Below, one piece after another: positions 1,983-54,222 of a stretch of 64,000 nt of DNA. The stretch is from assembly GCA_001938485.1 (NCBI GenBank), contig MQRK01188858.1, forward strand, positions 1 through 64,000, in the 5' to 3' direction. The stretch comes from Girardia tigrina (taxonomy: Eukaryota). Made by a program: the position numbers and the translations under genes. The notes beneath the pieces were generated by a model. That model worked only from the letters and a program-made list of their open reading frames with translations. It did no database searches and was not told the DNA's origin. Every line of letters begins with the position of its first letter. Position 1 is the first letter of the stretch.

Positions 1983-2099
1983 ATGAATTTAAAATTTTAC
2001 TACAAAGGTCAAGTAATTTCCGTCAATATCAATGAAAATTCAGAAATAAAAAAGATTTATGAATCTTCTATATCGAAATTCGATTATCATTTTTCCAAG
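1983..2099 (+). CDS. par-3: Par-3-like gene, coding exon 1 (MNLKFYYKGQVISVNINENSEIKKIYESSISKFDYHFSK)
   Basis: First in-frame ATG after an upstream TAA; ends AAG|gtagtc, phase 0; first half of a Par3/HAL N-terminal beta-grasp-like domain. Confidence 0.65.
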
Positions 2100-2177
2100 G
2101 TAGTCGATAACGTTTTCTAAATGAAAATTAATAATAGTTAATTTCATTGAACAAAATCGATTTGATTCCGAATACAG

Positions 2178-2282
2178 GAACTCGTGTTATTCAGTTTTCA
2201 AGTTCGATTGCGAATCAAAAGAAACAATCGATTTTTAGACTGGAAAGATGTCGCCAGCGGAGTGCTGATGGACGATGACTTA
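2178..2282 (+). CDS. par-3: Par-3-like gene, exon 2 (ELVLFSFQVRLRIKRNNRFLDWKDVASGVLMDDDL)
   Basis: tacag|GAA acceptor and TTA|gtaaat donor, phase 0-0; LDWKDVASGVLMDDDL resembles the LDxDDxxxDVxDDxD motif of the Par3/HAL N-terminal domain. Confidence 0.7.
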
Positions 2283-2328
2283 GTAAATTTGATATATAAC
2301 GATCGTATAATCGATTTATGCCTCACAG

Positions 2329-2467
2329 ATTATCATAGAACCAAAAGACAGCGTATTGATATCGAATAATCAGAGTTGCCACGCTCCCAAACGCTATGAC
2401 ATATCACATATCGAGAATAATTTCGCTTCTTCTTCCAATAAAGATTCGCGACAATTTCTCGATACTC
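2329..2467 (+). CDS. par-3: Par-3-like gene, exon 3 (IIIEPKDSVLISNNQSCHAPKRYDISHIENNFASSSNKDSRQFLDT)
   Basis: cacag|ATT acceptor after a 46-nt intron; open frame; ACT C|gtaatt donor, phase 1. Confidence 0.65.
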
Positions 2468-2729
2468 GTAATTGATTTATTTTTAATTAAAATATTTTTA
2501 TTAAATTATATTTTTAATAATTAATAATTATTTATTGCGATTGTTTTAATTATGATTTTTGTTATTTCTTATTTTCTTTTATTTTTTGTTATTATTTATT
2601 ATTTTTTGTCATTATTTCCGATTTATTATTATTATTAATACTTCTAATTACTATTGTGTTTCGCTATTTTTTTGTTGATATTTAATATTTTTGTTATTTA
2701 TTATTTTTGTTATTTATTTATTTTGTTAT

Positions 2730-3480
2730 TAATTATTATTTTGGTCAATATTTTTTATTGTTATTTAATATTTTCTTTTTATTTATTTTTTGTTTTTAAT
2801 TATTATTTTTATTAATATTTTTTGTTGTTATTATTTTCTTTTTATTTATTGTTTTTGTAATTAATTATTATTTTTATCAATATTTTTCATTGTTATTTAT
2901 TATTTTCTTTTTATTTATTTTTTGTTTTTAATTATTATTTTTATTAATATTTTTTGTTGTTATTATTTTCTTTTTATTTATTTTTTGTTTTTAATTATTA
3001 TTTTTATTAATATTTTTTGTTGTTATTTATTATTTTGTTTTTTTTTATTTTTTGTTATTAATTATTATTTTTATTAATATTTTTTTGTTGTTATTATTTT
3101 CTTTTTATTTATTTTTTTGTAATTAATTATTATTTTTATCAATATTTTTCATTGTTATTTATTATTTTCTTTTTATTTATTTTTTATTATTAATTATTAT
3201 TTTTATTAATACTTTTGTTGTTAATTATTATTTTCTTTTTATTTATTTTTTGTTATTAATTATTTTTTTGTTGTTATTTAATATTTTTGTTATTTATTAT
3301 TTTGTTAGTATTTATAATTTTTTTAATTATTATTTTTATCAATATTTTTTGTTGTTATTTATTATTTTGTTAGTATTTATAATTTTTTTAATTATTATTT
3401 TTATCAATATTTTTTGTTGTTATTTATTATTTTCTTTTTATTTATTTTTTTGTAATTAATTATTATTTTTATCAATATTT
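2730..3480 (+). repeat. T-rich degenerate minisatellite (about 57-60 bp unit) within low-complexity tract 2470-3720
   Basis: Repeated ttaattattatttttattaatattttttgttgttatttattattttctttttatttattttttg-like units. Confidence 0.85.
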
Positions 3481-4220
3481 TTTAATATTTTTGGCATTAT
3501 ATATTATAGTCGTTTATATTTTTTGTTATTATTTATTATTTATTATTTTTGTCATTATTTTCGATTATTTATTATTATTATTATAGCTTCTAATTTCTAT
3601 TATTTTTGTCAATATTTTTTTGTTATTAATTATTTATTTGTTATTTATTACTTTTGTTATTAATTATTATTTATAATGCTTTGTTATTATTTATAATTTT
3701 TTTCCATTTTTTTAATTATTTTTTGTTATTTTGCATTTTATTTAAATTCATAAACAACACAATTAATAATTTCAATAAAAAAAATATTTTCTATTTCCTT
3801 TAGTAATTTAAAATCAATTCACCGATCTTTAATTTTTAAGTAATCTTCTTTTTAACTCAATAATTATTTTGCTTTTTAAAACAGAAAATTAAAACGAATA
3901 TCGAATAATTTTTTTTAATCATATTTATTCTAAAATAATATTTAGTTTTAAACTTTTAAGAACATTTAATCCACAAATCATTAAAACATTTAATTCTAAA
4001 TCATTAAAAATATTTAAAATTATTTCAAAACTCACTTGAAATTTTAAATTATTATATTTTTTAAAAATTATTATTTATTTCTATTTTTACGAAAATTTAT
4101 TTCCCACTTTAATTTAAAAAATTCTTATGCAAATGTTTTAGTGTGAGTTAAAAATTATACCTTTTGTTATTATTATTTTTGTTATTATTTAATGTATATT
4201 TATTATATCATATTTTGAAG

Positions 4221-4297
4221 CTCCGAGTTTACCGGTAAAATTGAAACAACCTTCTCAGAACGAATCCGGATTCCCAAACCGATTGCATAAATATCAG
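4221..4297 (+). CDS. par-3: Par-3-like gene, exon 4 (PPSLPVKLKQPSQNESGFPNRLHKYQ)
   Basis: ttttgaag|CT acceptor, phase 1 (C+CT gives Pro with exon 3); CAG|gtgata donor, phase 0; GC-richer island in AT-rich flanks. Confidence 0.65.
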
Positions 4298-4929
4298 GTG
4301 ATATATTTATCGATCGTTATCGTATCACTTTTCAATTTTGATTTTGCCATAAATCAGAATAAAATTGGTTTAAATACAATCAATATCATTAAAATCACGT
4401 GAAAATTTGACATAGAAAATATTTTTTCAAATTATTACTTCACTGTCGTATACTGTCATAAATGTTCGATTGTATTTCATCTAAAATTAAAATTTATTAT
4501 TTAAAAAACATAATTTTTATTCAAAGAAATCAAAAATATCTCATCCAAAAGCATCACTTGTAGCGCATATTCTCATATGACAAAAATGCGCTATTGTATT
4601 CATCATGACCGTGTATGTATGTACGTGTTTGTCACAGCAAATTACGGGTACCGGGTGCGTCCAAGACCCCATAAACTATATATTTTCGGATAGGTCTCGT
4701 CAACAGCGATCCAAACAGTTTCTTTTTCAGTTTTCGGGAGATTGAGGAAATGTCGGGCAGAAGTCTTCATCTACGAGTGCTCGTCAGCTATCATAAGACC
4801 TTTGTTGGGAGAGTTTTCGATGTCTAGTATTTAACAAATGTATTTGTGAAAAGAAAAGGAAAAATAAAAAAAATATTAAATCAAATCTTGTTTTTTTTGT
4901 CAAGGTTTTCTTTCAGGTTGAACATTTAA

Positions 4930-5252
4930 CCACCGTACCTCTTTGAACGAGCGTGACTCGTCGTCAAACAACTTTCCCGATCGCAACAACCCGAGTGACG
5001 CTCGTTCATATAATCAAAACCAATAGAAAAAGGAAAATGATGGTGATGAGGTGGAGAGACAAAAGAGACATGTTTTTCTATCAACGGTTCATGGTGCAAC
5101 CATGATTGAATTAGACAGCGGAAAACAGCTGGTTTTACGACCTATTATTGCCAAAAAGTACCATAACAAAAATTATTATCTTGGTTACAATAATAAAAAA
5201 ACGTGGTGATTTTTTTACCTACCTAGTGGAAAATAACCCAAAGGTAAGGTGG
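4930..5252. mobile_element. piggyBac-like MITE nested in the HINE-like element
   Basis: TTAA on both sides (4926-4929, 5253-5256); TIR ccaccgtacct / aggtaaggtgg; internal inverted repeat gaacgagcgtgactcg / cgagtgacgctcgttc. Confidence 0.75.
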
Positions 5253-5329
5253 TTAAAGAAACTGTTATGTATTTTATTAAACTGATTTTTTAAAATACTA
5301 ATATTTCTATGATATTAACCATTTCGTAG

Positions 5330-6300
5330 ACCAATCGCAGTATAATACACTATTCGCAGTATAAAATACCAATCACAATAAAATACACTATTCACAGTAT
5401 AATACACTATTCAGAGTATAATACAATATTCACAGTATAATACACTGTTCGCTGTATAAAATACCAATCAAAGTATAATACACTATTCGCAGTATAATAC
5501 ACTATTCGCAGTTTAAAATACCAATCACAATATAATACACTATTCACAGTATAATACAATATTCACAGTATAAAATACCACTCACAGTATAATACACTAT
5601 TCGCTGTATAAAATACCAATCACAATATAATACACTATTCACAGTATTAAATACCAATCACAATAAAATACACTATTCGCAGTATAAAATACCAATCACA
5701 GTATAATATACTATTCGCAGTATAAAATACCAATCACAATAAAATACACTATTCGCAGTATAAAATACCAATCACAATAAAATACACTATTCGCAGTATA
5801 AAATACCAATCACAGTATAATATACTATTCGCAGTATAAAATACCAATATAATACACTATTCACAGTATAAAATACCAATCACAATATAATACACTATTC
5901 ACAGTATAAAATACCAATATAATACACTATTCGCAGTATAAAGTACCAATCACAATAAAATACACTATGCGCAGTATAAAATACCAATCACAATAAAATA
6001 CACTATTCGCAGTATAAAATACCAATCACAATATAATACACTATTCACAGTATAATACACTATTCAGAGTATAATACAATATTCACAGTATAATACACTG
6101 TTCGCTGTATAAAATACCAATCAAAGTATAATACACTATTCGCAGTATAATACACTATTCGCAGTATAAAATACCAATCACAATATAATACACTATTCGC
6201 TGTATAAAATACCAATCACAGTATAATACACTATTCATAGTATAAAATACCACTCACAGTATAATAAACCATTCACAGTATAATATAATATTCGCAGTAA
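5330..6300 (+). repeat. Tandem array of about 19-bp monomers, two variants often alternating as 38-bp dimers
   Basis: cagtataatacactattcg and cagtataaaataccaatca repeated head-to-tail without unique spacers. Confidence 0.95.
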
Positions 6301-6789
6301 AAAACTATTTAGAAAAAGAGAAAATGCGCTGTACTTCACTCATCGCAGTGAGTACTGATCTATATTTTTTAGTTTAAAATTACAAATTTTTTAATTAATA
6401 AAATAAAAATTTTCTTTATTTAAAAAATGAAATTCAAAATTAATTTTTCAAACATATTTCTATTATACAAACAATTTCCAGGCCAATCAAAATTTATTAA
6501 TTTTGACGGTTTAACCGTCATCGTCAGAACAAATGATTTTTCAAACGAAATTTACTTATATAGTGCAGTTAATGATTGTGCAATCAATACGTCATCAGTA
6601 AATCATTTAAAAACTCCCATCAAAGTTGCAGAGAATGCGGTTTGAAAGCTAATTTTAGGATCTAAAGATCTTATAACGCTTCACATATCACTCTATCCCA
6701 ATAATTTTTTAAATCGAGTGCACAGAATTTTAAAGTATTGTGAATTTATAAGTTTAAAACGGTATTTATAATATTAAATTTAATACACA

Positions 6790-7530
6790 AATTAGACAAC
6801 TTTTTATTCTGTGCAATTATTTTATCATTAATGGTTTAATTAGAAGAATTTTCTGACATACTTATGCATAATTGATAAATAAAATCATCACTAACATCCT
6901 TAAGAAGATTTCTATTGATTGTCAGATGTCTGATGATTTTGCTTCGTCTTTTCTTTTCTTTTTCCAACATTCTTCTCAGGATCTTGTGCTGAATTGTCCG
7001 AACTTCTGAAAATTCTTCCACTTTAAAACACGAATTTTATTGGCTTTGAAAAAATCCTGTACTGTCGTGGTCATGTGCTTTGGATCTTTAGCCTGTTGAA
7101 ATACCCAACCTCAACAAAAATAAAATTTTAGTACCAGTGATATTCTTGTCCATTATGAACTCTATGCAATGTATTGGACCAATCATCTCACGACTAAAGG
7201 CACCCCAAACCAACACATGACCACCTCAATGCTTTACTGTAGGCAACTGATACTTTTTATCCATTCTTTTACTGACAGGTCCTCTTACATACTTAATTCC
7301 ATAACTCTTAAAGACCATGAACTTCGATTTTTCAGGAAAAGAACCTTTGACCATTCTTTGGACGTCCAGTTAAGATTTTCCTTTGCAAACTTGACTCGGG
7401 CCTTTCGATTCTTTACCAAGATCAAAGGTTTTTTGCAAGTTGACAACCAAATAAATTTGCTTTCTAAAGACGACGTTTTGTAGTATCAACACTACACTTA
7501 ACATTATAGTCCAATTTCGATAATATTGTA
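6790..7530 (-). mobile_element. Tc1-family transposase remnant
   Basis: KKPLILVKNRKARVKFAKENLNWTSKEWSKVLF...LPTVKH*GGHVLVWGAFS...WVFQQAKDPKH with stops and frameshifts. Confidence 0.9.
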
Positions 7531-7539
7531 AGAATTCTC

Positions 7540-8150
7540 TCGTATTTTTGTGATGTTACTAAATACTTAAATGGTTACAAGATATGGTGTTTGAGTTCCG
7601 CATAATTTGACCATTTAGAGGTCGCATCTAGATCAGCTGTGTAATTTAGGCGGTACATACATGTACCGAGAGTCTCAAAAGGGTTAAGTGAATCAAATGT
7701 TTGGGATAGAATTTCAGCTTGTGGTTTTCTACTGAAATGCAATAACGATGAACCATTTAAAAGCAAATGGTTACAGGCCAATGAAAATGGATTATAAAAA
7801 TAACGTTAAACGATCAAGACACAGGCGTAATCCAGAATCATCTCAATTAATCACTTCTAAGGCTGGTTTGAATTTTAATAAAATCATGCTTAATATTTAG
7901 TTATATTAGGAACAATTGCATTATTATAAATTACTTCTATCAAACCAAAATATTAATTCTTAGAAGTTTTCTTCCAAGTTTGACTGAAAGCAAATATTCA
8001 AAACAAGTACCATAACTAGTTAACCGAGTTTAATTGGAATGTTCTGATTCATCTTTCATATTCACCGGATATCGAACCATCCAATTTTCAATTATTTAGA
8101 ACCTTGGAAAATCATTTAATGGTAAAATTGATTGTTTGAAGGATTATCAA
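7540..8150 (+). mobile_element. mariner transposase remnant
   Basis: YGV*VPHNL (WVPHEL-like), DRISACGFLLKCNNDEPF, and WNVLIHLSYSPDIEPSNFQLF (YSPDLAP-like). Confidence 0.75.
7611..7683. mobile_element. 73-bp piggyBac-like mini-insertion inside the mariner remnant
   Basis: Flanked by ttga/ttaa; termini ccatttagag / ctcaaaaggg; removal restores VPHNLSESN; a similar terminus gtaccgggacttaaagggttaa occurs at about 31864-31885. Confidence 0.55.
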
Positions 8151-8281
8151 ACGCACCTTAAAATTACATAAAATATGAAATAAATAAATATAAATAAAAA
8201 ATTACCTAAAATTACCTAAAATTACTTAAAATTACCTAAAATATAGCAGATAGCTGTAAATAAAGGGGAACATTATATCAT

Positions 8282-9593
8282 CAGGGTGATCATAAAGTAA
8301 CTACCAGGTTTTAAACTGCAATAACTTTTTTTGGCAAAACATTATGAAAAAATGGTTTTAAATAACAAAAAAGCATTTATTAAAATTTAATAATACTCAA
8401 CCTTAATAATACATCGACCTCAATACAATATTTAAGGCATCCATGAAAAGACTTAATGGCATTTTGGCACATTTCACCATCTATTTTTGCCGCTTCTTGA
8501 CAAATAAAATCTTTAAGTTGCTGAATTGTTTCTGGTTTTCTCTTATACACTTCATTCTTCAAATACCCCACACAAAAAATTGAGTGGTGTCAAATCATGT
8601 GACATGGCCGGCCATACATATGGACCACATCGTCCCAGCCAACGTTGTAGAAACGCTTCATCCCAGAAATTGTCACACAATAAGTGAATAATGGGCAGGT
8701 GCTCCATCTTGCTGGAACACAGTTTTCCGTTTGTATGTTCTTGATAACGATGTCATAAAGCAAATTTTTAACATATCCAGGTAAAGCGCCGCTGTTATGT
8801 TTCCTTCAATAAAAAAGGGCCCATAAACACGAGTTGAAGACAACCTTATCCAAACATTTACTTTTTCACTAGCTTGTGACCTCTGATATGTTTCGGTTGG
8901 TGTTTCAGTGCCCCAAATGCGACAGTTTATCTTTTTACAATGCCGTTAAGATGGAAAGTTGACTCATCAGAGAATATCAGGTTACTAAGAAAATTTTCAT
9001 CTGTATCAATCGATTGAATTAACGTTTCACATATAACACGTCTAAGAGCGCAATCTTCTTCATACAAAATTTGCGTGGCTTGAATTCTGTAGGGGAACAT
9101 TTTTAAGTCGTTTCGTAATACTTTTTGAACAGTTCCATAAGAGCAATTCAGAGTTGACAACGATTTTCTGATAGAAGACTGGGGTTCTTGCTTAAAATGT
9201 TCTGCTATCTCATTTTTCTTTTCATCATCAATCGGTGGTCTTCCAGATTTTTGGGGCATTTAGAACGCTTCCTGTTTCTTCAAACTTTTTGAAGATGCTT
9301 CTAATACTTTTTTCAGTTGGAATATTTTTCCATTTAAGTCGTTGAAGTTCTCTTCTGACTAAAGTCACTGACTCATGCTTCGCAAATAAAATAACAATTT
9401 TTACACGCTGATTTACATCCATTTTGAATCTTACGCTTAAAACAATACAACAATTAATACATTTAAATAAAATGTACTTTTAATTAAATTTTAAAGAATA
9501 AGCTTCAAGATTCCTTTATAATTAAAAAGAAATACAAAATAATTCAAAAGTTATTGCAGTTTTAAACCCGGTAGTTACTTTACGATCACCATG
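8282..9593 (-). mobile_element. Full-length but mutated Tc1/mariner element of the DD41D (rosa/Visitor) group
   Basis: About 48-bp TIRs (cagggtgatcataaagtaactacc.../...ggtagttactttacgatcaccatg); transposase 9422 to about 8380 with DUF4817-like HTH, FSDESTFH, FQQDGAPAH and WPAMSHDLTPL; 41 residues between the 2nd and 3rd catalytic positions after frameshift correction. Confidence 0.9.
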
Positions 9594-11993: not shown

Positions 11994-12149
11994 GAAATAA
12001 TCTCTAAATAAAAATTTAAGTTTACAGATAATATTTGTTACTAATTAAAATAAAAATGATTTTATAAAATATATTTTATAAAATCATTTTTATTTTAATT
12101 AGTAACAAATATTATCTATAAACTTAAATTTTTATTTAAAGATTATTTC
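11994..12149. repeat. 156-bp spacer-less AT-rich palindrome
   Basis: 78-bp arms with 2 mismatches, centred between 12071 and 12072. Confidence 0.9.
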
Positions 12150-13814: not shown

Positions 13815-14733
13815 AGTGAAAGGTGGATTTCCAATTTAATCGTGCTTCTGACTGAAGACAAGCGTGCAACAACGAGGAACATTGCAAGGGGAATTGATCA
13901 GGATAAAACCACGGTGTGCCAGCACTTGAATGCAATAGGATATCGATATTTAGGATATTGCTGCGTGCCACATGCTTGACGCAACATAACAAGGATAATC
14001 GCAAAAGAATTTGTCAACAGCTATTGGATAGTTATAACCGGAATGATTTCCTGTCCCAAATCTTCACCTGCAATGAAATATGAGTGTACTGGGACAACGA
14101 AGGCGCTTTCAACAATAGATCATGGAGAAAATCGAATGAAAACCCACTTGCAACACCGGCACGAAGACTGACAAACCGAAAGCATCTCGCCTCCGTCTTT
14201 TGGGACAGTAAGGGACTGGTCTTGTTAGATGTCTTACCTCCAAATGCGACAATCAATGCGGATGTCTACTGTACTCAGTTGGATTGTCTCATTATCGCCG
14301 TTCAACAGAGGCGCAGACAGTTGCTCCATGAAGGAAACCACAATGTTCATTATCTCCACGATAATGCTTGTTCGCAGACGGCTGCTAAGACCAAGGACAA
14401 GCTGAATGCACTTGGATTCACCGTACAACCACATCCACCATACTCCCCGGATCTCTCACCATCTGACTACTATCTATTCTCTCCAATGAAATGTGCACTT
14501 AGAGGAAAGAATTATGCCGGTGTCAACGATATCAACGAAGATCTTCTACATTGGTTTGACAAGAAACCGCGTGATTTTTTCCAAAATAGGATACGCAGCC
14601 TCTTTGGATGTTGGCTGAGATGTATTGAGCACAATGGCGACTACTTTTCGCATTTGCATGACGTGGACGATTGATAAAATATTTTATTGTATTTTGGTGT
14701 TTTTTTTGCGACAAAACTTATGAGGTAACCCTA
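13815..14733 (+). mobile_element. 5'-truncated mariner (DD34D); catalytic ORF 14084-14674
   Basis: VPHA, YLHDNA and HPPYSPDLSPSDYYLF (34-residue D-D spacing); 3' TIR gcgacaaaacttatgaggtaacccta; preceded by a hAT-like end cagggctgtggagtc...ccgactccgactc (13774-13814). Confidence 0.92.
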
Positions 14734-19891: not shown

Positions 19892-20789
19892 ATATTTTAT
19901 GAACGTAATTGCAGTAAACATTGTCACCGATATTTTATTTCATATTCTTCAAGATTTTTTATATATTCCTGTAATATTCTAAAGTTCTTGTTCTGTTTTA
20001 GTAATCTTTTATGGTGATAATATTTTATATTTCGAATATCAATGTTGAAAATTTTAGTTATATTTATAGCTATTTTATAAATTGCATTTTACACATTCAC
20101 AATAATAATGTGAAAATTCAACTTGTTTCAGTTCATATTGAAGGTATACTATCATATATTTTCCAATTGTCAAACTTCCTAGAATCAGTTAGGAAATGAA
20201 GTTTGTAGAAAATGCCTCGTAAAAATAAAAACCATTTTAAAAGTTAGTTTCAATAGAAATCAATATGAAAAAAATATTTTTTTATTCCAACAATTAAACA
20301 AAAGAAACAGTTAAAAAATTTATTTTTTGGAGTACTATAACAATAATTCGCATAATAGTTTAACAAGGAAGGTAACACATAGGGGAAGTTGATTTTCATC
20401 TTCAAGATTTCTGCTTGACTGATTCATAAAAGTAAGAAATTATGACCAATTGAAAATATTAATTCATCATAATGCCAGTGAAATTTTTAACTGTATATAA
20501 AAAATAAAAAAACATAAAATTAATATGAACGATATATAGAAGGATAAGAAAATGTAGATGTCACAAAAATTTTCATACACGGGAAAATTTAACAAATTTA
20601 TCATGTTTTATTTTCAGACATCCTCAAACAATATCGTTGTCAAAATTATATTTAAATCATTTTAAAATCGTTTTTAGTATTTTTTTCCTTTAAATAATTT
20701 TGAAATCATTTTCATTTCTATCTTCGAGAAAATTTCGACATGGAAAATATTAGAAATTTCATTAAAGAAATAGTCCAAAGTTGTTAACT

Positions 20790-21230
20790 TGTAATAGTAG
20801 ACCGATTCAGTAGATATATTAGCCTGAATGCAGTTGCTATCCAAAATGAAAAAAAAACAGTGCGTAGAATTATATTGGACAGATGGATATGGAAGTTTGG
20901 ACCTCCAAATGAAATCCATGTTGATAGAGGAAAAACATTTGAATCGGCTTTGTTCAAAGATGCAGTTATAAGGTTCAAAGTTGAGATAATCTATTCGGGT
21001 CCATATCATCATAATAAAAATGGGATAGTGGAAAGACAATTTCGAACAATCAGAGATGCTATAAATATTATAATGAAGGACGGAGACCACAGAGATTGGA
21101 CAGAAGTTTTGTCGGATATAGAATTTATGTTGAATAGTACAGTTCAAGCTACGATGGTGTTTCATTGGCTGAAATAATATTTGGGAGACGATTAAGACAT
21201 TGGTGGAAGAACAATAAAGAAACTAAAGGA
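20790..21230 (+). mobile_element. Ty3/gypsy integrase core remnant
   Basis: WIWKFGPPNEIHVDRGKTFES...YSGPYHHNKNGIVERQFRTIRD...EFMLNSTVQAT. Confidence 0.9.
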
Positions 21231-21683: not shown

Positions 21684-21800
21684 TTTGATCAAATTTTCAC
21701 ATAATCATTTATTGTCATCGAAAATGAGTAAATGTTCAAAGTTGGAGAAAAGTAATTGAGTAAAAAGCCTTCAAAAATAGGTTTCTAAACTCCATGGATA
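21684..21800 (-). repeat. Second copy of the dispersed repeat at 1488-1605
   Basis: Reverse complement begins tatccatggagtttagaaacctatttttgaaggctttttactcaat. Confidence 0.75.
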
Positions 21801-22063
21801 AAATATAAAGAAAACAAACTAATATAAAACATGGAAAAAAGGAAAATTTACTTTAGTTAATTTTTCATACCAAAATGGCGTTTTTGACTATTAATATTAT
21901 AAATGTTATTCGGAATTTGTTAATTTTTCCTTTAATTTTTTACCTGTCATTTATTTTGTTGTAACAAATCCGTTTTGGAACTTTTTATATATAATTTTTT
22001 CAGTACTGCAGATTAATACATCGATCACGAATCTTTATTTTTGTGTTTCTAATTTGTTAAATA

Positions 22064-23417
22064 TTGGGTTGTTGCATAAGTTCCCGCCGCTTTTTAAACA
22101 TTTATTTTCAAAGAAATCAAAGAATTTTAACAACCAAAATAATGACTCAGTTAATTATATATTTAATGAAATCATAAAATNNNNNNNNNNNNNNNNNNNN
22201 NNNNNNNNNNNNNNNNNNACTCTCCTTCATTGTTCACTACTTCTTCCCATCTTTCCACCAGTTTGTTGATTCCATTTCGCCAGAAATCCTTAGGTCGAGT
22301 CTCGAAGTTGTTGAGCCAATTCTCAAGATGATCCTGATTTTCGAAGCTAAGATCCTTCATTTCATTTGAAAGGCAGCGGAAGAGATGGTAATTCATCGGG
22401 GCGAGGTCTGGGTAATAGGGAGGATGTTGAAGGACCTCCCAACCGAGCTCTTGGAGTGCCATCTTGACAGTTTTTGCGGTGTCTGGTTGAGCATTGTCAT
22501 GGAGGAGGATCACCTGGCCTTGTCGATCCGGTCTTTTTTTTTGAATTGCCTTATTGACTCAATGCAATTGGGCTTTATAGAGATTCTTTTCTACTGTCAT
22601 GTTCTTTCCAAGCATTTTCCAGTGGATTAGACCTTCCCAATCCCACCATACGCAAATCATTGTCTTCATCGGGTGCAGGTCTTTCTTGATCCTGGGCTTA
22701 GGCTTCTCTACAGGACTCACCCACTCTTTCCTTTGCTTCATATTCACATAGAGACATCATTTCTCGTCTCCAGTGACGATTCTGTATAAGAAACGTTGCC
22801 TGTGGCCATGGGTTCCTTTGTGTCGAGCGAGATTTTGAGCAGCAATGGAAAGCCGCTTACTCTTCTGTTTTTGGGTGAGTTCGTGCGGGACCCAAGCTCC
22901 AAGCTTTTGAGTGAAACCCATCGACTGAAGACGACGTGAAATTGTCGCAAAATCACAATTCATCTTTTCGGCCAATTCTCTGCATGTCTGGCGGCCATCT
23001 TCCTTCAAAAGATTCCCGAGTTGGTCCTGGTCCATCTCGACTGGTCTTCCGGAACGAGGAGCGTCGTTGAGGTCGAAATTATCGTGTTTGAACCTGACAA
23101 ACCAATCCCGAGCAGTTCTCTCAGCTATAGCGTCTTCTCCATACACGGCACAAATATCTCTGGTAGCTTCACTCGCTTTTTGACCTCGATTAAAGGTGAA
23201 AAGAAGGAGTGTCGAAAATGCGATTTTTTGTCGACTTGACAATTTATTTGACGGTTCTAAAAAAAGACAAATAAATAATATAGGTAAAAACGATTACTTT
23301 AATCTTGTAGAGCATAGCACGGGCTTTCTAATGGTATATAACACTTCGCCAAACATCAAAAAGTCTTTGTAGAACAAATAGTTTCATGTAACGGCGGGAA
23401 CTTATGCAACAACCAAA
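22064..23417 (-). mobile_element. Full-length mariner (DD34D), nonsense-mutated, contains a small N gap
   Basis: TA-flanked TIRs ttgggttgttgcataagttcccgccg / cggcgggaacttatgcaacaaccaaa; transposase from 23242 with RSGRP, WVPHEL, IVTGDEK*, LLHDNA and HPPYYPDLAP. Confidence 0.95.
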
Positions 23418-26160: not shown

Positions 26161-26306
26161 AAATCCGATCATTCACAAAATATGTCTCGAGAAAACCGAA
26201 CTATAAGTAATAATTTCGACAGAAATGGACTTCGAAGATCTCTCGGTGCTGCCTTCGCTCCTCAATGTGATATTCTTTCATCAAGAGAAAATAATAATTT
26301 TTTCGG
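26161..26306 (+). CDS. par-3: Par-3-like gene, exon 5 (KSDHSQNMSRENRTISNNFDRNGLRRSLGAAFAPQCDILSSRENNNFFG)
   Basis: ttttag|AAA acceptor, phase 0; GG|gtatat donor, phase 2; FDRNGLRRSLGA resembles the Par-3 linker motif FxRxxxRxSL. Confidence 0.65.
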
Positions 26307-29169: not shown

Positions 29170-29218
<49 letters not shown>

Positions 29219-32058: not shown

Positions 32059-32201
32059 ATTTAATTCCAACAATGCATATCCAAATGAAATACATTCATC
32101 AGATTCATCGATTTCAGATTGCTATCAAAAACCACAAAATAATTATAAAGGAAAACCGAATAAAATAACCGGTTTAACTATTAAATCATCCAATATCGGA
32201 G
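32059..32201 (+). CDS. par-3: Par-3-like gene, exon 6 (FNSNNAYPNEIHSSDSSISDCYQKPQNNYKGKPNKITGLTIKSSNIG)
   Basis: ctttacag|A acceptor, phase 2 (GG+A gives Gly with exon 5); strong G|gtaaga donor, phase 1. Confidence 0.65.
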
Positions 32202-38137: not shown

Positions 38138-40365
38138 TAGGGCTTCCCAACTGGGTCTAGGTGGACTCCCAGGGGTCCACAACGTGATTAAGTAAATTAA
38201 TTTTGATTAAGCAAAATTATGAATTACATTTATAAAGTGTTATTCAAAAATTCAGGAATTGAAAAAGTCAATGATTTAAAACGTTTCTAACAAGTTTCCA
38301 TCTCTAATAAATAAAATTGTATCAACCATAAAATAATAAAAAATATTATTGTTTAAATAAATAACTTTGTAATACTTTTTAAATACCCAATTTTGATATA
38401 AGTAAAAGCAATAAAAAATGTAGGAAATATGATCCCTCGTACATTCAATATGGAGTATTTGCCAGCCAAAATAATCCGTTATTACCACAGTGTCTCATTT
38501 GCTGAACCCAATTGACAAATGAATCGATGAAACCTGCCAAATTATCATTACATCTCAATAAATACCATCCTTTATTGGCCAAAAAATCAAAAGAATATGT
38601 CCAGGCGATTAGTGCAAGTGCCATTCTTCATCGTCAAAACTGAAAAGCTTTCTCATCAAACGCAATAGCGTTTCTAGGCTCACCGCGTCTTATAATATTG
38701 CATTTTTGATTGCTAAACAAGGTCGGCCACATACCATTGCTGAGGATCTCATCAAGTTTGCTATCATGGAAGCGTATAAAGTAGCTAATGTTTCCAATTC
38801 AAATTCTATTATTAGCAGCATACCTCTATCCAATAATACTATTTTGTCTCGCATTATTGATATGGCAGATGATGTCAAATCTATCCTTATTGAAGACTTG
38901 CGAAACAGCAGATTTTCATTAACTATTGATGAAAGCACCTTTGTAAATCAGTCTGTACTTCTTGTTTTTGTGCGCTATGTCAAGAATTCTGAAATACGTG
39001 AGAAGCTGCTCTTTATGAAAACTCTCATTAATACTTACAGGGGAACAAGTGTTCAACGTTGTAAACAACTTTCTACAGGCAAATGATATAAGCATGGATA
39101 ACATAATTTCCATTTGCACAGATGGTGCGCCGTCAATGATCGGCAAAAAGAAAGGATTTGTATCCAGATTTATTCAAGACAGAACCTTACACTATTCACT
39201 GTGTTTTACATCGTGAAAATTTGGTTGCAAAAAATATCGGTAACCGTGATCTTATTGCTGTTCTTCAAACCGTTGTTCCATGTTTCAATAAAATAAGAAC
39301 CCTGGCTCTTCAAGACCTACTTTTTCAGGATGCTTGCCGTGATGAAAATTTTCATCGACTAGTTTACTCAACAGATGTGCGTTGGCTTTCAATGGGTAAC
39401 TGTCTCACCAGATTTTTCCTACGGTTTTACAATATTTCTGAACTTTTGCAGAACAGGTACCCTATTCTGAACAACTCACTTATTTATAATAAGATGATTA
39501 TATTGTACTTGGAAGAAATATTTCGGAAACTCAATGAACTCAATTTATCATTGCAAAACCCAGGATATAAACATTGTGTGTGCTAAACAAATTATAAAAG
39601 CATTCATGAATAAGTTGGTACTTTTGAAAATAAAAGCTGAGAAAAATAACTTTTGTCATTTTTCCAGTTTAGACTGTAAAGAAATTGATAGCGATTTATA
39701 ATCAATCATTGTGGGTCATTTGTCTTTCTTGTATGATAACTTCCAAACTCGTTTTGAGGATCTTCTGCAGCTTAATATACCACCTTTTGCCGATTTGCTT
39801 CATACCATGACAATGGAGGATGTTATGGGTCAACCAGAATGCATTCAGAATGAACTTTGCGAGGTTATCGCGGATGAGCACATGATTCAGGTCTCTAAGA
39901 AAATTGGATCAAGGCATGGCTGCAAAACTCGGCCAAATATCAAATCTTGTTTGAAAAGGTAGAACCCTTTATAATTAATTTACCGACGTCCAATTTGACT
40001 GAGAAAGTCTTTTCAATTTTGCTTCATTCATTCGCAAAACAATGAAGGAGCTTTCACTTGAATGATAATGCAGAGATGAGGCTCCGTCTAAGTAACTTGC
40101 AATTACGAATTTCTGCTCTTGTAAGTAATAAACAGTCACAAGGCTCTCACTAATAATTTTGTCTATAAGACAGCTTGATCAATTCGAATAAAATTTTTTG
40201 TTGAATTAATGTGCTTAATAAAAATGAATAAAGTTTTTGTTTTTTTATATTTTTTATTTTTAGAAATTAAATGCATAAACACTAAAAATCTTACCTAAAT
40301 CATTACCTAAATCATTTGTCCATAGCGAAAAAAGTTTTGTTTGGGAAAAAGGTTGGGAAGCCCTG
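38138..40365 (+). mobile_element. hAT Buster-family transposon, full length but decayed
   Basis: TIR tagggcttcccaac / gttgggaagccctg; 8-bp TSD ctttaaag / ttttaaag; IAKQGRPHTIAEDLI, FSLTIDEST, CTDGAPSM, IHCVLHRENL, DVRWLS and terminal KQSQGSH*. Confidence 0.95.
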
Positions 40366-41630: not shown

Positions 41631-41639
41631 TCTGCGTTT

Positions 41640-43950: not shown

Positions 43951-44074
43951 CCCACCCAGATGGAAAATTGATATTTTAAATGTTTTGACCTGTCGGATTA
44001 TTCGGAAAATGTCAAAATGTAAATAACAACTTTAAAATTAAATTATTATATTTTAATCAATAAATATATAATAA

Positions 44075-46335: not shown

Positions 46336-46680
46336 CCGTATTTTTCGTACTGAGTCGATTTTACTAAAAGCGGTTTATTTTTTGTAAAATCCATATATAA
46401 ATGGATTCTGAGTATAAGTCGACCTCTAAGCGACTGAACCATATATCGATTGTTCATTAGGATTTAAGCACATGATGGATAACGGTTATTGTTTTAATAA
46501 ATCGACGACGACGGGGGCTCTATATCGAACACGCGGCAGTTTCCGGAAAACTATCTCAAGCATTTTTGAACATACAGGAGGACTGCCGACAAGTAAAATC
46601 CTTATATAAGTCAATGTGGAGTATAAGTCGAGGGTCGCCATTTTTATGTAAAAATGTCGATTTTTAGTCCAAAAATACGG
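46336..46680. mobile_element. pogo/Tigger-like MITE
   Basis: ta|ccgtatttttcgtact ... agtccaaaaatacgg|ta with repeated gtataagtcga subterminal motifs. Confidence 0.75.
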
Positions 46681-47159
46681 TAATTATTTTTTGTTTTTCT
46701 TGGTTCCAATTATTTGATAATCTTTTAAAGTAAAAAAACGATCAGGCTATTATCATTTGTTTCTTTTATTGTTTTTTTTAATTCTTTCAAATTCTTAAAA
46801 ATCTTTGATATATGTATATAGAGTTCTTCTTAAGGTTTCCAGGTTGGTGTAACCTAAGAAAATGGGGGTGTACAATATAACATATTTATTTTTACTCAAA
46901 AATTGTTACATCACAAATGCACACTGGATTTAAAGGTTGAAGAACAAAAGAATGTCTTATACTTATTAAATAAGTATACAATTATAAATTATCTTGTCTA
47001 GGAGCGTGTATGTGCTAGAGGGAGAAAGAGTAGGTGGAATATTAGTGTGTGTATTTTTATTGAATCCATGCTTTATCTATAAATAGCTAAATTTTTGGAT
47101 GTGCATCTACAAAAGTTTGGTGTACATTGTACACCCAAAATAACCTTAAAATACCCTAT

Positions 47160-47193
<34 letters not shown>

Positions 47194-50100
47194 ATATACT
47201 AATTTCTCCAATAATTTCAAAGACTTTATATTTTAAAATGTGGTGCAAAGTTACAATATCATAATTGTCTAAATAGTATATCAAATATTGAATTTATATT
47301 CCTTTATTTTTGTTAAATCTATAACATGTTTTAACTCATCTTTCGAAGTTAAATTTTGATTTCATGTCTTTTTAAATAGACAATTTAGGAATTTTTCAAT
47401 TAAAAATTATTATAAATCTATTATTCAAGTAATTGTATAAATAGAAAAATGATCTTCAATAAAAATACTTTTTTTCAATAATTTTATTGAAATAAAATTG
47501 CTAATTTGAATAATTTTTATCTGAAATAATGCTTTAAATAGCAATTTTAATGTTTATTTATATATTTTAATATAAATTTACATCACACGAAAAATATTCT
47601 TTTCTTAAAAAAAACTAAAGTAATTTTGAATAATACAACGTATTAATTTTGTCGGAGAAAATAGCGATTTGTTTTTGTTGTTCGATTATTTGTACACAAA
47701 GTAATGTAAAAAAGTATGTTATTATTAATACATTATTATTATTGAAAAGTATATTTTATTAGTGATCATCAATACTTTTTAAATACGCACCGAAGATAAA
47801 ATTTGTTTTGTACAAAAGTATAGAATATTCACACAAAAATATGTAACAAATTTTAACAATATATTCAATGAACAATTTTTATAACAGTTATATAATTAAT
47901 TTATCGTTATTCTTTTTAGTATTTTATAACAATTGACAAACAAATATTCTAACTACAAATGTTACTTTAATTTTTGTTAAATTCGTAAAAATTTATATCT
48001 TATTTATTGTTATATTTCTTTTCGAAGATTTTTAAAACACAATAAAAAATATTTATGATTTTGATCTTTTTCATCTTATTAAGTAATGTTTTACAATTAT
48101 GCTACTTTAAAGGAAGAAATAATTTGGAACTTTAAAATAATTAAAAAATCATAACATATTTTTTTTAAATTTTGCAATTATTTTTACAATAATTTTAAAA
48201 GTAAAAATATTATTTAATTTATTAATAATTTTAGTTTTGATTTATTTTACATAAAAAAACTAAAAATAAAGAAATTTTTTTTAAAAAATCGAAAAAATAA
48301 ATATAATAATGGGTATTAAAAGTTAGCTATTTCTGATGTAGGAATTTTTTATTTATGCTGGATTTCATGTGTCATAACTCAGAAATTTTAGCTCGATAAT
48401 TGCTTTTCCTTGATCGCTTACAATTGTTTGCAACGAGTGCTGTCTACTCTCTTGCTCCTCAAAGCTCCAGTGCTTTTCTTAGTTCTTCTTCCCCTCCTCT
48501 TTATGCTATTTCCAATTCTACTCAGAAAATGTGCCCTAATCCAGTAAAACTATTTGTAAAAATATGTTTAATAAACTTTTAGTTAAAAATTAAAATTAAT
48601 AAAATAATTCTTTATTATTTAATTATTTAGTTTTAATAAATTATTTTAGAAAATTAAAAAATAATAAAAATCAGATAATAATATTAATTAATTCTATTTT
48701 TACTTAAATATTTAAAATTATTTCTCTCTTTTGATTGGTTCTTTATTTATGTTCTTTTAATGATTTCTTAAAATCTTTATTAATGTTTATTAGAATTAAT
48801 TTATAGAATTCATTATTTTCTATTTAACTACAATTTATTTAGATTAATTTAAATTAATTTAAATCGATTTTAATTGAGCCGATCAAAAGAAGACAATGAA
48901 CGATCTTTATGAAGAACTATGTTTTTTAATTTCACTTATTAGAAAATCAATCTTTATTTAATATAATTATTTATGAAAATTTATAATGATAAAATAAATA
49001 ATATAAAACAAATGAAGTTCTATTTATAAACTTTTTATTTATAATATCGGAATAAAAAATGATTTTTAAAATAACATAAAAATGTTGTAAGAAATATAAA
49101 TAAACATTGCAAATTAACAATGTGTACTGTGTGAATTGAGAACAATTTAATTATAAAGTATAAAAATAAATCAATAATATGTTTGATTAATAAATGCATT
49201 GCATTAATATTAAAGATTTATTAAAATTATCATAATTACGTAATTGAGAACAATTATTTCAAAACAATGCACAATTCTGTTCTTTATTAAACGCACACAC
49301 AAACACACATACCAATACACACAGTCAAAATACTGTAACAAATGTTCAATAGTATTATTTATTTTATTTATTAATTAATTGTTAATTAATTAATTACTCA
49401 TTTTTTTAAGTATTATTAATAATTATTTCTTCATATAAATTTTTTTAGTATATTTATTTTTTTACTTTGTATATCAAATTTTAATATTGTTTTCGTTATA
49501 TTTAAACAAATCAATATTTATTGATTGTTCTTTTTTAAAAAGGAACTAGTTTGTTTTTAATGAAATATTTACAATTCAATTAACCTCAATGGGTCAGTTG
49601 TGTTGAATATTATTTTTATGTAATTTTAATCGACATTCAATATAAATTTTATGTATTTTCTATTGAAAAAAAATGTTGAGAATTTATTTTTAGTAAAATT
49701 ATAGAAGTAATTTTTTTAATAATATTAATCTGTAATATTTTGATACTACTTATGGCGATATATTAACAGAAATGTTTAATTAAAGTTATGATTGACAACA
49801 AAATATATCTTTTTAATCAAGTTTGTATGTTAATTGAGTCAATTAAAGAAAAAAATTTCAAATAGTACTATAAGTATGTATAACAATGGCTTGTTACTAC
49901 CTTATTAAGGTGTAGGACCTACAATGTAGGTAGTTGTCGAATTATCATTTTTTTAAATATTGAACACGGCAGTAAAATAAAAAAATGAGTGACTTTTAAA
50001 CAATAATATAATAAGAAGGGCGTATTAAAATTTATAACAAATGACTCTTGAAGGTTGTTGTTACAGTATAAAGGGTTAAGTTAAAATAACTTCCGTTTTT

Positions 50101-50231
50101 CTGAGTTAAAGAAATAAATTATTTTTTTTAATAGTTAAATTATTATTAATTCCCTTTGAAACAAAAAGTTAGTAATTGACCGAAACAATTATTAAGAAAA
50201 GGAGAATACTAAATTTATATTAATATATATT

Positions 50232-50597
50232 TTTGGTTCATCCCACATCACCAGTTCTGCTTAGCAAAAATGGTCCACTATGCATTTGTATTCGATGTAA
50301 ACCTCCTGTAACATATTAGACAGATGCACACTTAGAACACATTTAAAGTTTGAAAATAAGTTAAGAATATTTCACCCCAAATATTTCTAATCATTTAATT
50401 TATGAGGTCAAACAACGGAAGTAGAATATAAACGCCAGTTATCCTGGGGAAAACTTCAGAAGAAATCAGCTACTAGTTTGATGAGTCTTTCGCTCCTTAT
50501 ATTTAAGTCTGACGATCGATTTGCTCGTCAGAACCGCAGTTGTCTTCCATCAAAAATTCTTCTGACTTCAGCCTGTGATTCACTATCTTTCAGGTTT
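50232..50597 (-). pseudogene. Dispersed degenerate 28S (LSU) rRNA fragment
   Basis: Plus strand matches the reverse complement of conserved LSU blocks: ggttcatccc.catc.ccagttctgctta.caaaaatgg, catttaaagtttga.aata, cagctactag, gacgatcgatttgc.cgtcagaa; many substitutions and deletions. Confidence 0.9.
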
Positions 50598-51283
50598 TTA
50601 TACGATACTTTATATGATATCTTTGGTCTTTTACTAAAATATTGTTTGGTGAGAAATAATTTTAAAAGCAGAAAAGAAAGAGTTGAAAGAAAAAATATTT
50701 GTTAATTGTTTTTCTGCATCAATAATATTGATTTAGAAATTGAAAAATTAGAATCGGTTGTAGTTATATATATATCATTGTAGTTATATGTTTACATTTA
50801 CGGAGATATAATGTATTATTGGCGGCTTTTATACCGAGTGTGAAATTACCAAAAATTGTCTCTCGCTATTTAGTTTTCAAAATTAAATGTAAGAACAGTA
50901 ATGGCAACAAACTATCTTTTTGAGTATTATTTATACAAGTATATAAATTCTTTTAACAAAGTTCTGTAAAAAATGCACCCCACTGGGATGATAAGATGGA
51001 ACCTTTTTCGGTAAGGTCCGCCACTTAAAAATTGTACAAAGTCGATGAATATTTTAGTAATATTTTGAAATATCTTTTAAGTATTGTATTGTCATCGAGA
51101 TTACCCTTTTAAGGAAAAATTAATCTAGCTACGACATTACTGAGGTGATTGAAAATTCGATCGCAAGATTTTTAAACAAGTGACATTGCAGAGTGAATAT
51201 ATGAATAAGTGTTGTAAAGATTTTTTTTATCAATATTTAATCTTAATATATCATTTAAAACTTTTTTTTGTGGGAGATATAAT

Positions 51284-52568
51284 AAGGGTATCCTAAAAGT
51301 TCGTCGACAAAGTCAAATCACTGTGGCTGTATATGTATGTGATACAATTACCTGCTGCATTGTTTGTGTTGTCTTGTAGATGTCAACCAATTAGAAAATA
51401 TAATAAACGTGACTGGCTGACTATATGCATAAATATGGTAGGCTGTTTTGGGAATTATTAATTTTCTTTTATATCAGAATAAATCGAAGACGCAGTGTAG
51501 GTACAACTTGCAATCGTTTATTTTCTGTGGTAGGAAGGCACATTGCTAGTTTATATTACTCAACGTTTATCCTTTGTATTATGTAATGCAGCCATGCACT
51601 AAAGTTATGTCTACAAGTTGGTGCAAAAATTCGAGGATTGTCGACAATCGTTAGAGGATGACGTCATGAACGGCTGAAAAAAACCTCATCAACCATGGAA
51701 AATGCAAAAGCGATCGCGGAAATCATTGACAGTGATCGATGTGTTACTGTTAAGAACATTGCATTCCTTATCAACATGCTTCCAACTTCTGTACACCACA
51801 TCATAAACACAGACCTCAGAATGAAGAAACTTTCTGCGAGATTTGTGCCATGAAGCAAAATCGTCTGACAACCTGCCAACAACTCCTCGTGGATAACCTA
51901 GGGGAAGCAAGATTTTTTGTAGTTGACGAGATCTGACGGTTGTTTGTCTTCCTGAGACAAAGAAGTAGTCGAAGCAATTGTGCTGCCAGCAAGAAAAGCT
52001 CCCTGTTAAAGTAAAAATCGGCGGTAAGGTCATGGTCACAGTATTTTGGGATTGTGACATGACTATTTTAATTGATTATCTCGACAAATGAGTAACAGTT
52101 AACAGCACCTACTTCAGCAACATTTTGCTAAAGGATCTTCGCTAAACTCTGAAAAACAAACGTCATGGGAGATTATCCACAATGTATCTTCTGCAACAGG
52201 ACAATGCAACTCCTCATACTGCGACACTGACAATGGATACCATCAACAAGTTCAAATGACAACTACTCTATCATACTTCATTATTCGACAGACCGCGCGT
52301 CAAGCGATTTCTCCCTATTTTTCGCTCTCAAGAAGTCGCTACAAGGACAGGAAATGTGAGAAGCCTTTAACAAGCGGTTCCATGATGCACAGCAAGACTT
52401 CTTCAATATGGGCATTCGGTTTCTGAAGAAGCGATTGGAGATGTGAGTGTGCGTACAAGGTGACTTTATTGAAAAATTTGGCGAAGATTCTGATTATGAG
52501 TAGTATGTTCATATATCATTTTTCTTTGCTTCCGTTTTATTTTTCCACGAACTTTTCTGATGACCTTG
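51284..52568 (+). mobile_element. Decayed full-length mariner
   Basis: Degenerate TIRs aagggtatcctaaaagttcgtcga / ccacgaacttttctgatgacctt; RQSLEDD, KLSARFVP, GKVMVTVFWD, LQQDNATPHTA. Confidence 0.85.
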
Positions 52569-52759
52569 TTATGGGTGGTGCTCACAAATATTTTTCGAAA
52601 AGCTTAAGGCATATCTCTCAACATGTTCGTATTGATAAAATAAAACTAAAAATTAAATTAGAGGAGTGCCTCTTTCGAGATAAAGTTTCTTTATATATCC
52701 ATAAAATAATTGAAAACTTTCTAAGAAGTTAACTTTTATTACGAAAACATTCAAATAAA

Positions 52760-53404
52760 TTTCAAAGCCAGAAGAGCTTCACAAACACGTCCACAGTGAG
52801 TCATAGGAGTAGTTGATAGCTATTATTTCATTATAGTCACTGAAAATCTGACAGAAGTCATTGAACAACGAAAGGGTACCCGAAAATGCTCCAACCGCGT
52901 ATCAAAAGAGTGCAATGCACATATCCTTCTTGTTTCAAAGCTTTTGCGGAACGGAGGGAACTAAAAAGACACATCAAAAACGTACATACAGTCACGACGC
53001 CGCAGCGACAGAATGGTGACAAACCTTTCCAGTGTCCCATGAAAAATTGTCACAAGACGTATAAAACAGGTGAAATGGTTAAAGCGACATTTATTGATTA
53101 ATCACAAAACCCAAGGCAGTACCAGTAGTACTAGTGCTTCACAAAATAACGTAGATGAATAATGTACAAAATCTTCGAACCTGATCGCGATGCATGATGT
53201 GTCAGTGCCCCTCAGTACCGCGGAGGCGGACTCATGAGTGATTCCAAGGGTGGTTCTCGACTTTCGGTTAAGTAATACAAATGATGTGGAGATATTTCGG
53301 TGTCCCTTTACTCATTGTACGAAACGTGTTTACACAGCCAAAGCTCTACAGAATCACGGTACGAGGGATCATGACTGGTCCTTTCTGAATGGGAAACCGA
53401 AGTG
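52760..53404 (+). pseudogene. Decayed multi-C2H2 zinc-finger ORF, copy A (ZnF gene or retroelement N-terminus)
   Basis: CTYPSCFKAFAERRELKRHIKNVH; CPMKNCHKTYKTGE(frameshift)WLKRHLLINH; CPFTHCTKRVYTAKALQNHGTRDHDWSFLNGKPK*. Confidence 0.7.
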
Positions 53405-54142
53405 AGCCCATGCACTGAAAGCTCGCATTCTTGCATCTAAAGCCGTGCGAGAAAGTTAGTAGGCTCTGTATTGTCTATTTCTGGTTACTACCCGATACAG
53501 AGTCTATGACTCAATTCCCTGTACGACAATGCTGCTACTTTAGTCTCTACAACACACAGTTTTCCGTTCAGTCGGGGGAGGCTTGTTTGCCCTGAGAAAC
53601 GTCTTACGGTGCTGTGAAACCGTGTGCAACAGTACTTATTTTTGAATTTCAACTTTGGTGACCAAGTGATTGTATTCTTGCATTAAATTCGCTCCGCATT
53701 CGATTCGTTCACATAACAGACCGGGCTGAATCCATGTGTCTAACTGCAATGAAATTCGGTTCACTTTTCCATGTTGAAGAATGTTTCGCAAGCCAATTTG
53801 TGGAAATTCTAAGGACACTGAAGAATTGGTTTGTATTCTTAGTCACAAATTCTGTTAATTCATGAAATACTACTTGATTGTTATCGATGTGGGGATAAAT
53901 TTGGAAATTTCCATTACAGTTCTTGGTTCTTCAAGGATTGTACAATTTTAATTTTTCTGGAAACATCAATGCTCTCAATTCTAATAAGTTTTCTGGCTAC
54001 GAATATATTATAGATGATATTATCACCTTTACTCGCACAATGTCAAGTATTTAGTTTAAAATTATTCATGTATAATTATATTTTAAAATTATAGATTTTA
54101 TTTGTTATTAATATTAATTTTTATCATATTTTTGTTCTGCAG

Positions 54143-54222
54143 ATATGAAGATCCTATCGAAATCAGCTCCAGCCTCCCCTACGAAACCTGCTCCGCCACA
54201 ACGGTCACCGCACACTCATTTA
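54143..54222 (+). CDS. par-3: Par-3-like gene, exon 7 (DMKILSKSAPASPTKPAPPQRSPHTHL)
   Basis: ttttgttctgcag|AT acceptor, phase 1 (G+AT gives Asp with exon 6); TTA|gtcagt donor; proline-rich linker-like peptide. Confidence 0.6.

Follow-up and report, generated by a model that had tools for sequence, protein, structure and literature searches.

The window, by which we mean the whole 64,000-nucleotide stretch of DNA analysed, contains on its forward strand a gene that an earlier note had read as a highly diverged par-3/bazooka, spread over seven small GT-AG exons with matching phases. This model is present in the sequence: the seven joined exons give one stop-free protein (807 nt, 269 codons, zero stops), all six introns run from GT to AG (6/6; sizes 78, 46, 1753, 21863, 5752 and 21941 nt), and the intron phases are 0,0,1,0,2,1. 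The features are as follows.

1873..1982, + strand: 5' UTR of exon 1; RNA contigs start at 1873, 1878 and 1899, and an in-frame stop lies 5' of the exon 1 ATG
1983..2099, + strand: exon 1 coding part, codons 1-39; spliced in RNA, predicted first half of a ubiquitin-like head
2178..2282, + strand: exon 2, codons 40-74; spliced in RNA, contains a CR1-like acidic core
2329..2467, + strand: exon 3, codons 75-120; spliced in RNA, final strand of the head and start of a polar linker
4221..4297, + strand: exon 4, codons 121-146, linker; RNA on its first 30 letters, 3' end predicted
26161..26306, + strand: predicted exon 5, codons 147-195; from AG/GT borders, phase and coding score, with F-x-R and R-x-S-L (S173)
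32059..32201, + strand: predicted exon 6, codons 195-243, linker; its splice-site scores are the top ones among the model exons, its coding score is neutral
54143..54222, + strand: predicted exon 7, codons 243-269, proline-rich; from AG/GT borders, phase, GC of 0.51 and coding score

Exons 1 to 4 belong to a real gene that is spliced and expressed. We compared assembled contigs over window positions 1500-2500, leaving out the small shares X14-X16; the runs X7, X6 and X8 represent three studies and are RNA by guess or unlabelled. In these three of the four runs a single contig each, of 3445-3473 nt, skips introns 1 and 2, with zero depth inside both introns, and the loose end of the contig at 2467 continues with 30 visible letters that are the start of exon 4 (3/3 spliced runs). 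The DNA run, X2, has neither joint, reads through the exon 1 donor unspliced and is without cover over exons 2 and 3. The end of exon 3 at 2467 is fixed by the RNA together with a GT donor, in agreement with the peptide given in the earlier note. The junctions predicted there are therefore seen in RNA from three studies for exons 1/2, 2/3 and exon 3 to the start of exon 4, while exons 5 to 7 stay predicted. The mRNA measures about 3.5 kb, of which by arithmetic some 2.5 kb lies past exon 7 (2560 nt in X7, which could hold at most about 850 codons), so that it is long enough to hold downstream PDZ exons. The few variants in the aligned runs (I16V, L74T, S110T and two silent changes) do not suffice for a test of selection.

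For the three distal exons, matching phases alone are weak evidence, because phase-compatible open exons arise by chance at many other acceptor sites (26, 6 and 40 in introns 4, 5 and 6). A rough scan combining splice-site and coding scores ranks exon 5 as 5th and exon 6 as 11th among 63 plus-strand candidates and places exon 7 below the donor cut-off, as it does the RNA-confirmed exon 2; the minus-strand control scores equally high, and the scan thus supports exons 5 to 7 without proving them. Exons 1 to 4 might be correct and exons 5 to 7 wrong or incomplete; we consider this unlikely, and it would be compatible with a diverged Par-3. The many chance exons and the control scores favour it, as do six N runs in the window that could conceal exons, but each of exons 5, 6 and 7 scores best in the frame that the model requires, all three fall outside the window repeats, and exons 5 and 6 rank high among the non-transposon candidates.

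To assess the head of the protein, we compared it by eye with the printed nine-species Par-3 alignment (Fig. S2B of PMC5968619). By this comparison residues 46-80 align with mouse CR1 gap-free and with identical numbering, with Q47, V48, L59, D60, D63, V68, D71 and D73 identical, and overall identity to mouse CR1 is only 11/80. Three of the five invariant CR1 columns are retained (D60, D63, V68) and a fourth is changed conservatively (R33 to K32); the hydrophobic positions 3, 5, 7, 12 and 14 and the helix pattern of the CR1 rows are retained as well, as is, within residues 1-80, the spacing L-D-x2-D-x4-V-x2-D-x-D. This core pattern, which was chosen after seeing both sides, has a single occurrence in 127,996 six-frame window positions and appears in 2 to 13 per 100,000 shuffles of residues 1-82. 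In contrast, relative to the nine CR1 rows, K/R2 is replaced by N, P15 (8/9) by N, the hydrophobic residue 13 by S, D62 (9/9) by K, D/E67 (9/9) by G, D70 (8/9) by M and K/R72 (9/9) by D. The proposal that the first ~80 residues fit the Par3/HAL N-terminal pattern thus holds by eye against the CR1 alignment but has to accommodate several changed conserved residues, and because of these changes the term 'oligomerisation domain' may overstate what the head does. Introns 1 and 2 sit after codons 39 and 74, sites that correspond by eye to mouse Par-3 residues 40 and 74; the earlier note places phase-0 introns of vertebrate PARD3 after about codons 40 and 74. The substitutions also include a reciprocal charge swap, D62K/K72D.

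CR1 consists of five strands and two helices (PMC5583741, which cites PDB 3ZEE as the structure of the Par-3 NTD). Modelled alone with AlphaFold2, exon 1 is predicted to form strands at 2-7 and 10-15 and a helix at 21-28 (pLDDT 77), and exon 2 by itself is predicted to be helical rather than stranded (pLDDT 67). Exon 1 has weak Pfam matches to DUF2604 (E 0.1 and 0.015), which we take to be a ubiquitin-like fold. The match to Par3_HAL_N (PF12053) anticipated by the earlier note did not appear in HMM or fold searches, for which the queries were single exons: Pfam gave no PF12053 match for queries consisting of one exon or its open frame, and single-exon scans of Pfam and NCBIfam matched no Par-3 family, such half-domains being too short for this to mean absence. 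PDB sequence searches with single exons returned no Par-3 chain, and for the exon 1 half-domain model Foldseek found nothing at E 0.001 or better, the fold search found nothing with Z of 5 or more, and no Par-3 chain was among the matches listed.

Homologs were likewise not found among longer proteins for exon 5 (0/1 candidates) or for the RNA-confirmed exon 3 (0/8 candidates), which makes it likely that this collection does not contain the gene; the ESM Atlas gave nothing for exons 1 and 2, and Rfam gave no match. Two sets of candidates were rejected. All five matches of exon 2 in the representative search score only through summed weak repeats, and four of the five scanned as Calx-beta, Listeria-Bacteroides or fn3 repeat proteins; the single metagenome locus for exon 5 (L001; 68% over 19 residues) lies in unrelated, GC-rich DNA and matches by chance.

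The gene could instead encode a lineage-specific protein in which a generic or Par3-like ubiquitin-fold head is joined to an unrelated tail, making it no Par-3 ortholog, but we regard this as rather improbable. It would explain the low identity and the loss of many CR1-conserved residues, and is consistent with DUF2604 being the only Pfam hint and with exons 2, 3 and 5 having no homolog in the searched collections. It is less compatible with the way residues 46-80 reproduce the spacing and numbering of CR1 exactly, with a linker length and an aPKC-type site like those of Par-3, and with an mRNA size that suits Par-3. In favour of a diverged Par-3, the lineage itself looks fast-evolving: in a tree built with 18/33 matches, an SBDS-like protein (P0001, possibly a decayed copy) sits on a branch of 2.5 changes per site, where the median is 0.35.

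Filaments are considered central to the clustering of Par-3. The lateral contacts V13 and D70, with T4 and R9, are required for head-to-tail filaments of the Par-3 NTD, and in our by-eye register these positions are S13, M70, K4 and G9, so that the canonical contact residues are absent. Genuine Par-3 rows differ from one another at T4 and R9, and D70 is also missing from the Par-3 of Mnemiopsis; the changes therefore weigh against a filament and less against membership in Par-3. We tentatively consider, as possible but doubtful, that this is a Par-3 ortholog in which the filament contact of the N-terminal domain has been lost or rewired; the lineage would then polarise its cells with a Par-3 clustering weakly or by a new interface. 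If this is true, an ortholog without V13 and D70 would offer a test of whether evolution can dispense with oligomerisation or rebuild it. Both contact faces of the head are altered, K2N and V13S on one and D67G and D70M on the other.

After the head the composition changes, with the hydrophobic share at 43% in residues 1-82 and 22% in residues 83-269, and with S, N, P and Q making up 42% of the latter. Predicted exon 7 includes a CDK-type S-P-x-K site (S254). In HAL the catalytic domain comes close behind the head. Histidine ammonia-lyase, whose head is from the same Pfam family, is highly improbable here, since what RNA-confirmed exon 3 and the beginning of exon 4 encode is a polar linker of low complexity to which Pfam assigns no family; the earlier note had named this enzyme as what downstream exons might encode instead, and exons 3 and 4 do not bear that out. 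The predicted exon 5 site fits the aPKC consensus, R-x-S-hydrophobic with an F-x-R anchor upstream (PMC4998004). The linker contains no R-x-x-S-x-P 14-3-3 site, which in fly and mammalian Par-3 stands 60-70 residues after the head (PMC5583741), and no PDZ exon was found in the window, including 54223-64000, the 9.8 kb after exon 7.

The exon 5 motif also resembles the CR3 rows of Par-3 (Fig. S2B of PMC5968619) in its F-x-R followed by R-x-S-hydrophobic. Together with the lack of a visible PDZ exon between exons 4 and 5, this would suit a rearranged, PDZ-less Par-3 made of the head, an aPKC-binding CR3 site and a long tail. We think this very unlikely: the joint between exons 4 and 5 is only predicted, a further 2.5 kb of mRNA lies beyond exon 7, the F stands 8 residues ahead of the serine whereas in CR3 it stands 9 ahead, the basic K-R hook that follows the serine in CR3 is absent, and vertebrate Par-3 carries a similar motif in its own N-terminal linker.

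We favor the interpretation that the gene probably encodes a highly diverged Par-3/Bazooka scaffold, although membership is not established. The earlier identification survives in that the gene exists and is expressed, with a head that resembles CR1 by eye; it is weakened by the missing Par3_HAL_N match and the changed conserved residues. The window would hold the spliced 5' part, a predicted ubiquitin-like (CR1) head of ~80 residues followed by a polar linker that extends to residue 269; PDZ domains are predicted in exons past the window. The protein would be located at the cell cortex and, like other Par-3 proteins, would bind Par-6/aPKC by means of PDZ and CR3 parts further downstream. S173 is a putative aPKC site whose anchor would be the F-x-R upstream of it. 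With the known filament-contact residues changed, self-association of the head may be weak or use a rewired surface. To our knowledge any animal should have a Par-3, which makes this find an ordinary one, and the possible significance lies in the head; the gene appears to have diverged too far, and to be too fragmented, to be picked up by single-exon searches, and is partly confirmed by RNA.

Compared with known systems, animal histidine ammonia-lyase has its catalytic domain after the head, where this protein has a long polar linker. CR3 shares with predicted exon 5 the anchor upstream of the phosphorylation consensus, but follows the PDZ domains, whereas the exon 5 motif precedes the expected ones. 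The closest likeness is to the N-terminal part of Par-3. The Par-3 NTD (PF12053, Par3_HAL_N_term) and the head described here both comprise ~80 residues at the extreme N-terminus, and in human Par-3 an NTD of about 83 residues and a PDZ1 that begins right after residue 269 (PMC9573856) give the same layout as here. In both, an unstructured linker follows the head to about residue 270, and predicted exon 5 supplies an aPKC-type site here too.

All seven peptides predicted for the Par-3-like gene were located on the + strand of the window. Once exon 3 is ended at 2467, all six introns are GT-AG, their phases run 0,0,1,0,2,1, and the joined exons give 269 stop-free codons, which confirms in the window sequence the earlier note's claim of seven phase-matched exons encoding one open protein. 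Intron 1 falls after codon 39 and intron 2 after codon 74, positions that match mouse residues 40 and 74 by eye; the earlier note puts phase-0 introns of vertebrate PARD3 after about codons 40 and 74. Part of 1900-2500 is represented in 16 of the 19 listed sequencing runs, and we aligned contigs from four runs to window 1500-2500: X7, X6 and X8, which come from three studies and are RNA by guess or unlabelled, and the DNA run X2. Each of the first three gave one contig (3445-3473 nt) whose coverage is restricted to exons, which lacks the 78 nt of intron 1 and the 46 nt of intron 2, and which at 2467 runs on into the opening 30 letters of exon 4; in X8 the last codon of exon 2 is altered at the intron 2 joint. 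Neither joint is present in X2, whose sequence crosses the exon 1 donor, although this control is only partial because X2 does not cover exons 2-3. Since the splicing occurs at GT-AG sites, cDNA is the simple reading for the three contigs. Exons 1-4 are thus spliced into a 3.5-kb mRNA; the RNA expected across the predicted junctions was found at exons 1/2, at exons 2/3 and in the run-on into the start of exon 4, and the gene proposed in the earlier note is real, a good call. In the X7 contig, 466 nt match 1878-2467 and exons 4-7 would need 446, with 2560 nt left over. The transcribed 5' leader carries a four-codon uORF (1972-1986, + strand), and the stop of this uORF overlaps the main start codon, the ATG at 1983.

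Exons 5-7 (26161-26306, 32059-32201 and 54143-54222) likely follow exon 4 as predicted exons. Phase-fitting chance exons are common: intron 4 has 26 acceptor sites that would give one, intron 5 has 6 and intron 6 has 40. A rough scan, for which splice weights were set by hand and exons 1-4, the SBDS copy and transposase frames served to train the coding model, ranked exons 5 and 6 5th and 11th among 63 plus-strand candidates. Exon 7 fell below the donor cut-off (its total would be 14.8), as did the RNA-confirmed exon 2, while the RNA-confirmed exon 4 fell below the acceptor cut-off; minus-strand candidates outside the training set scored up to 23. For each of exons 5-7 the needed frame is the best-scoring one, and none overlaps a window repeat.

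With a GC content of 27%, this eukaryotic window is rich in A and T; it contains mariner, Tc1-like and integrase fragments and holds these elements:

1480-1605 and 21684-21807: high-copy, MITE-like short repeat, the first copy just 5' of the transcript start, the second an inverted 90% copy in intron 4
2555-3732: A/T-rich degenerate tandem array in intron 3
5330-6299: 38-nt minisatellite, about 26 copies, in intron 4
14084-14671, 20788-21174, 22175-23293, 38613-39583, 63675-63998: transposon remains placed in introns (Pfam: mariner/Tc1 transposase pieces and integrase core)
16831-16041, - strand: SBDS copy inside intron 4, free of introns itself and interrupted by one frameshift and one in-frame stop
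28741-28058, - strand: 228-codon open frame in intron 5, containing a decayed N-terminal beta-tubulin piece (PDB E 1.3e-15)
56879-56331, - strand: 183-codon GC-rich open frame 3' of exon 7, with no Pfam match

The stretch at 38613-39583 resembles a further DNA-transposon piece by eye and has no Pfam match. The short repeat at 1480-1605 has very deep coverage in the DNA run and is also found in RNA-type runs. The SBDS copy is 82-88% identical to P0001, its relative in the protein collection; close relatives show 86-91% identity and the remaining 30 matches 32-48%, and its branch in the tree is very long. Nested in intron 4, it is likely a pseudogene that arose by processing or was carried by a transposon. 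The beta-tubulin piece is preceded by about 65 unrelated residues and has an internal deletion; its frame, still open in 27% GC DNA, may be a pseudogene of recent origin or else a new chimeric gene. The 183-codon frame is possibly a retroelement piece.

What we regard as the best evidence for a putative Par-3 is the likeness of the head (residues 1-82) to the Par-3 N-terminal domain (NTD, or CR1), compared by eye with the nine Par-3 sequences aligned in PMC5968619 (Fig. S2B). Residues 46-80 align with mouse CR1 gap-free and with identical numbering, the head having one residue fewer before the helix and one extra after codon 39. Three of the five invariant columns are retained (D60, D63, V68), and R33 and D62 are both K. 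The pattern L/V-D-x2-D-x7-D-x-D/E-x-L/V/I has one match in 127,996 six-frame positions of the window, in exon 2. Shuffling residues 1-82 100,000 times reproduced it in 13 cases (2 with V68 fixed); these counts are flattering because the pattern was picked after both sides had been seen. The proposed Par3/HAL-type N-terminal domain has in its favour this resemblance by eye, against which are set an identity to mouse CR1 of 11/80 positions and the changed conserved residues.

Sequence searches covered single exons or their open frames, and with these there was no Par3_HAL_N match; the single Pfam match was DUF2604 on exon 1 (E 0.1 and 0.015), and single-exon queries of PDB sequences, the ESM Atlas and protein collections gave nothing useful. 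AlphaFold2 predicts for exon 1 alone strands at 2-7 and 10-15 and a helix at 21-28 (pLDDT 77), which we take to be the first part of a beta-grasp fold. When this half-domain model was used in fold searches, no Foldseek match reached E 0.001, no Z reached 5, and the rows listed held no Par-3 chain. Exon 2 with seven intron-coded residues is predicted to be helical (pLDDT 67) and does not support the CR1 reading.

Filaments of the rat NTD need T4, V13, D70 and R9 (PMC9573856), and V13D or D70K abolishes them (PMC5583741, PMC7211019). In the by-eye alignment the window protein has K4, G9, S13 and M70, in place of the V13 and D70 that make lateral contacts in the canonical filament-forming NTD. 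K/R2, D/E67 and K/R72, conserved in 9/9 rows of the CR1 alignment, and P15, retained in 8/9, are all changed, and D62K with K72D forms a reciprocal charge swap. T4 and R9 vary among genuine Par-3 rows and Mnemiopsis Par-3 is shown without D70 (PMC5968619); therefore the changes weigh less heavily against orthology than they do against a canonical filament. The head may oligomerise weakly or through a changed surface. That it is a natural Par-3 domain that forms no filaments we hold to be doubtful, but it would be the finding of greater interest.

The head is 43% hydrophobic, and the linker (residues 83-269) is polar. The earlier note had named histidine ammonia-lyase as an example of a product that would refute Par-3, and this is unlikely because exons 3 and 4 encode a polar linker without Pfam family where the catalytic domain would follow the head. 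The aPKC-binding motif of Par-3 (CR3) has F-9, R-7, R-x-S-hydrophobic and a K-R hook (PMC4998004). Predicted exon 5 contains F165-x-R167 and R171-x-S173-L174, with one match in the window and 331 in 100,000 linker shuffles. As a CR3 this motif was set aside, since its F lies at -8 and it lacks the hook; F-x-R anchors at other distances are possible in aPKC substrates (PMC4998004, PMC9290619), and S173 is a predicted aPKC site and S254 a predicted CDK site. A 14-3-3 site lies in the linkers of fly and mammalian Par-3 (PMC5583741); R-x-x-S-x-P has no match in the window protein's linker.

No PDZ exon was seen within the window, in the 9.8 kb 3' of exon 7 or in the long introns. The protein is likely a diverged Par-3 whose PDZ and CR3 parts would be encoded beyond the window, and through which the protein would act as a cortical scaffold for Par-6/aPKC. 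The gene is probably a member of this known family: in head and linker the window protein resembles the start of a Par-3, which makes it a candidate member. The Par-3 NTD has about 83 residues and human PDZ1 begins after residue 269 (PMC9573856), a layout that the window protein fits with its head of about 80 residues and its polar linker to 269.
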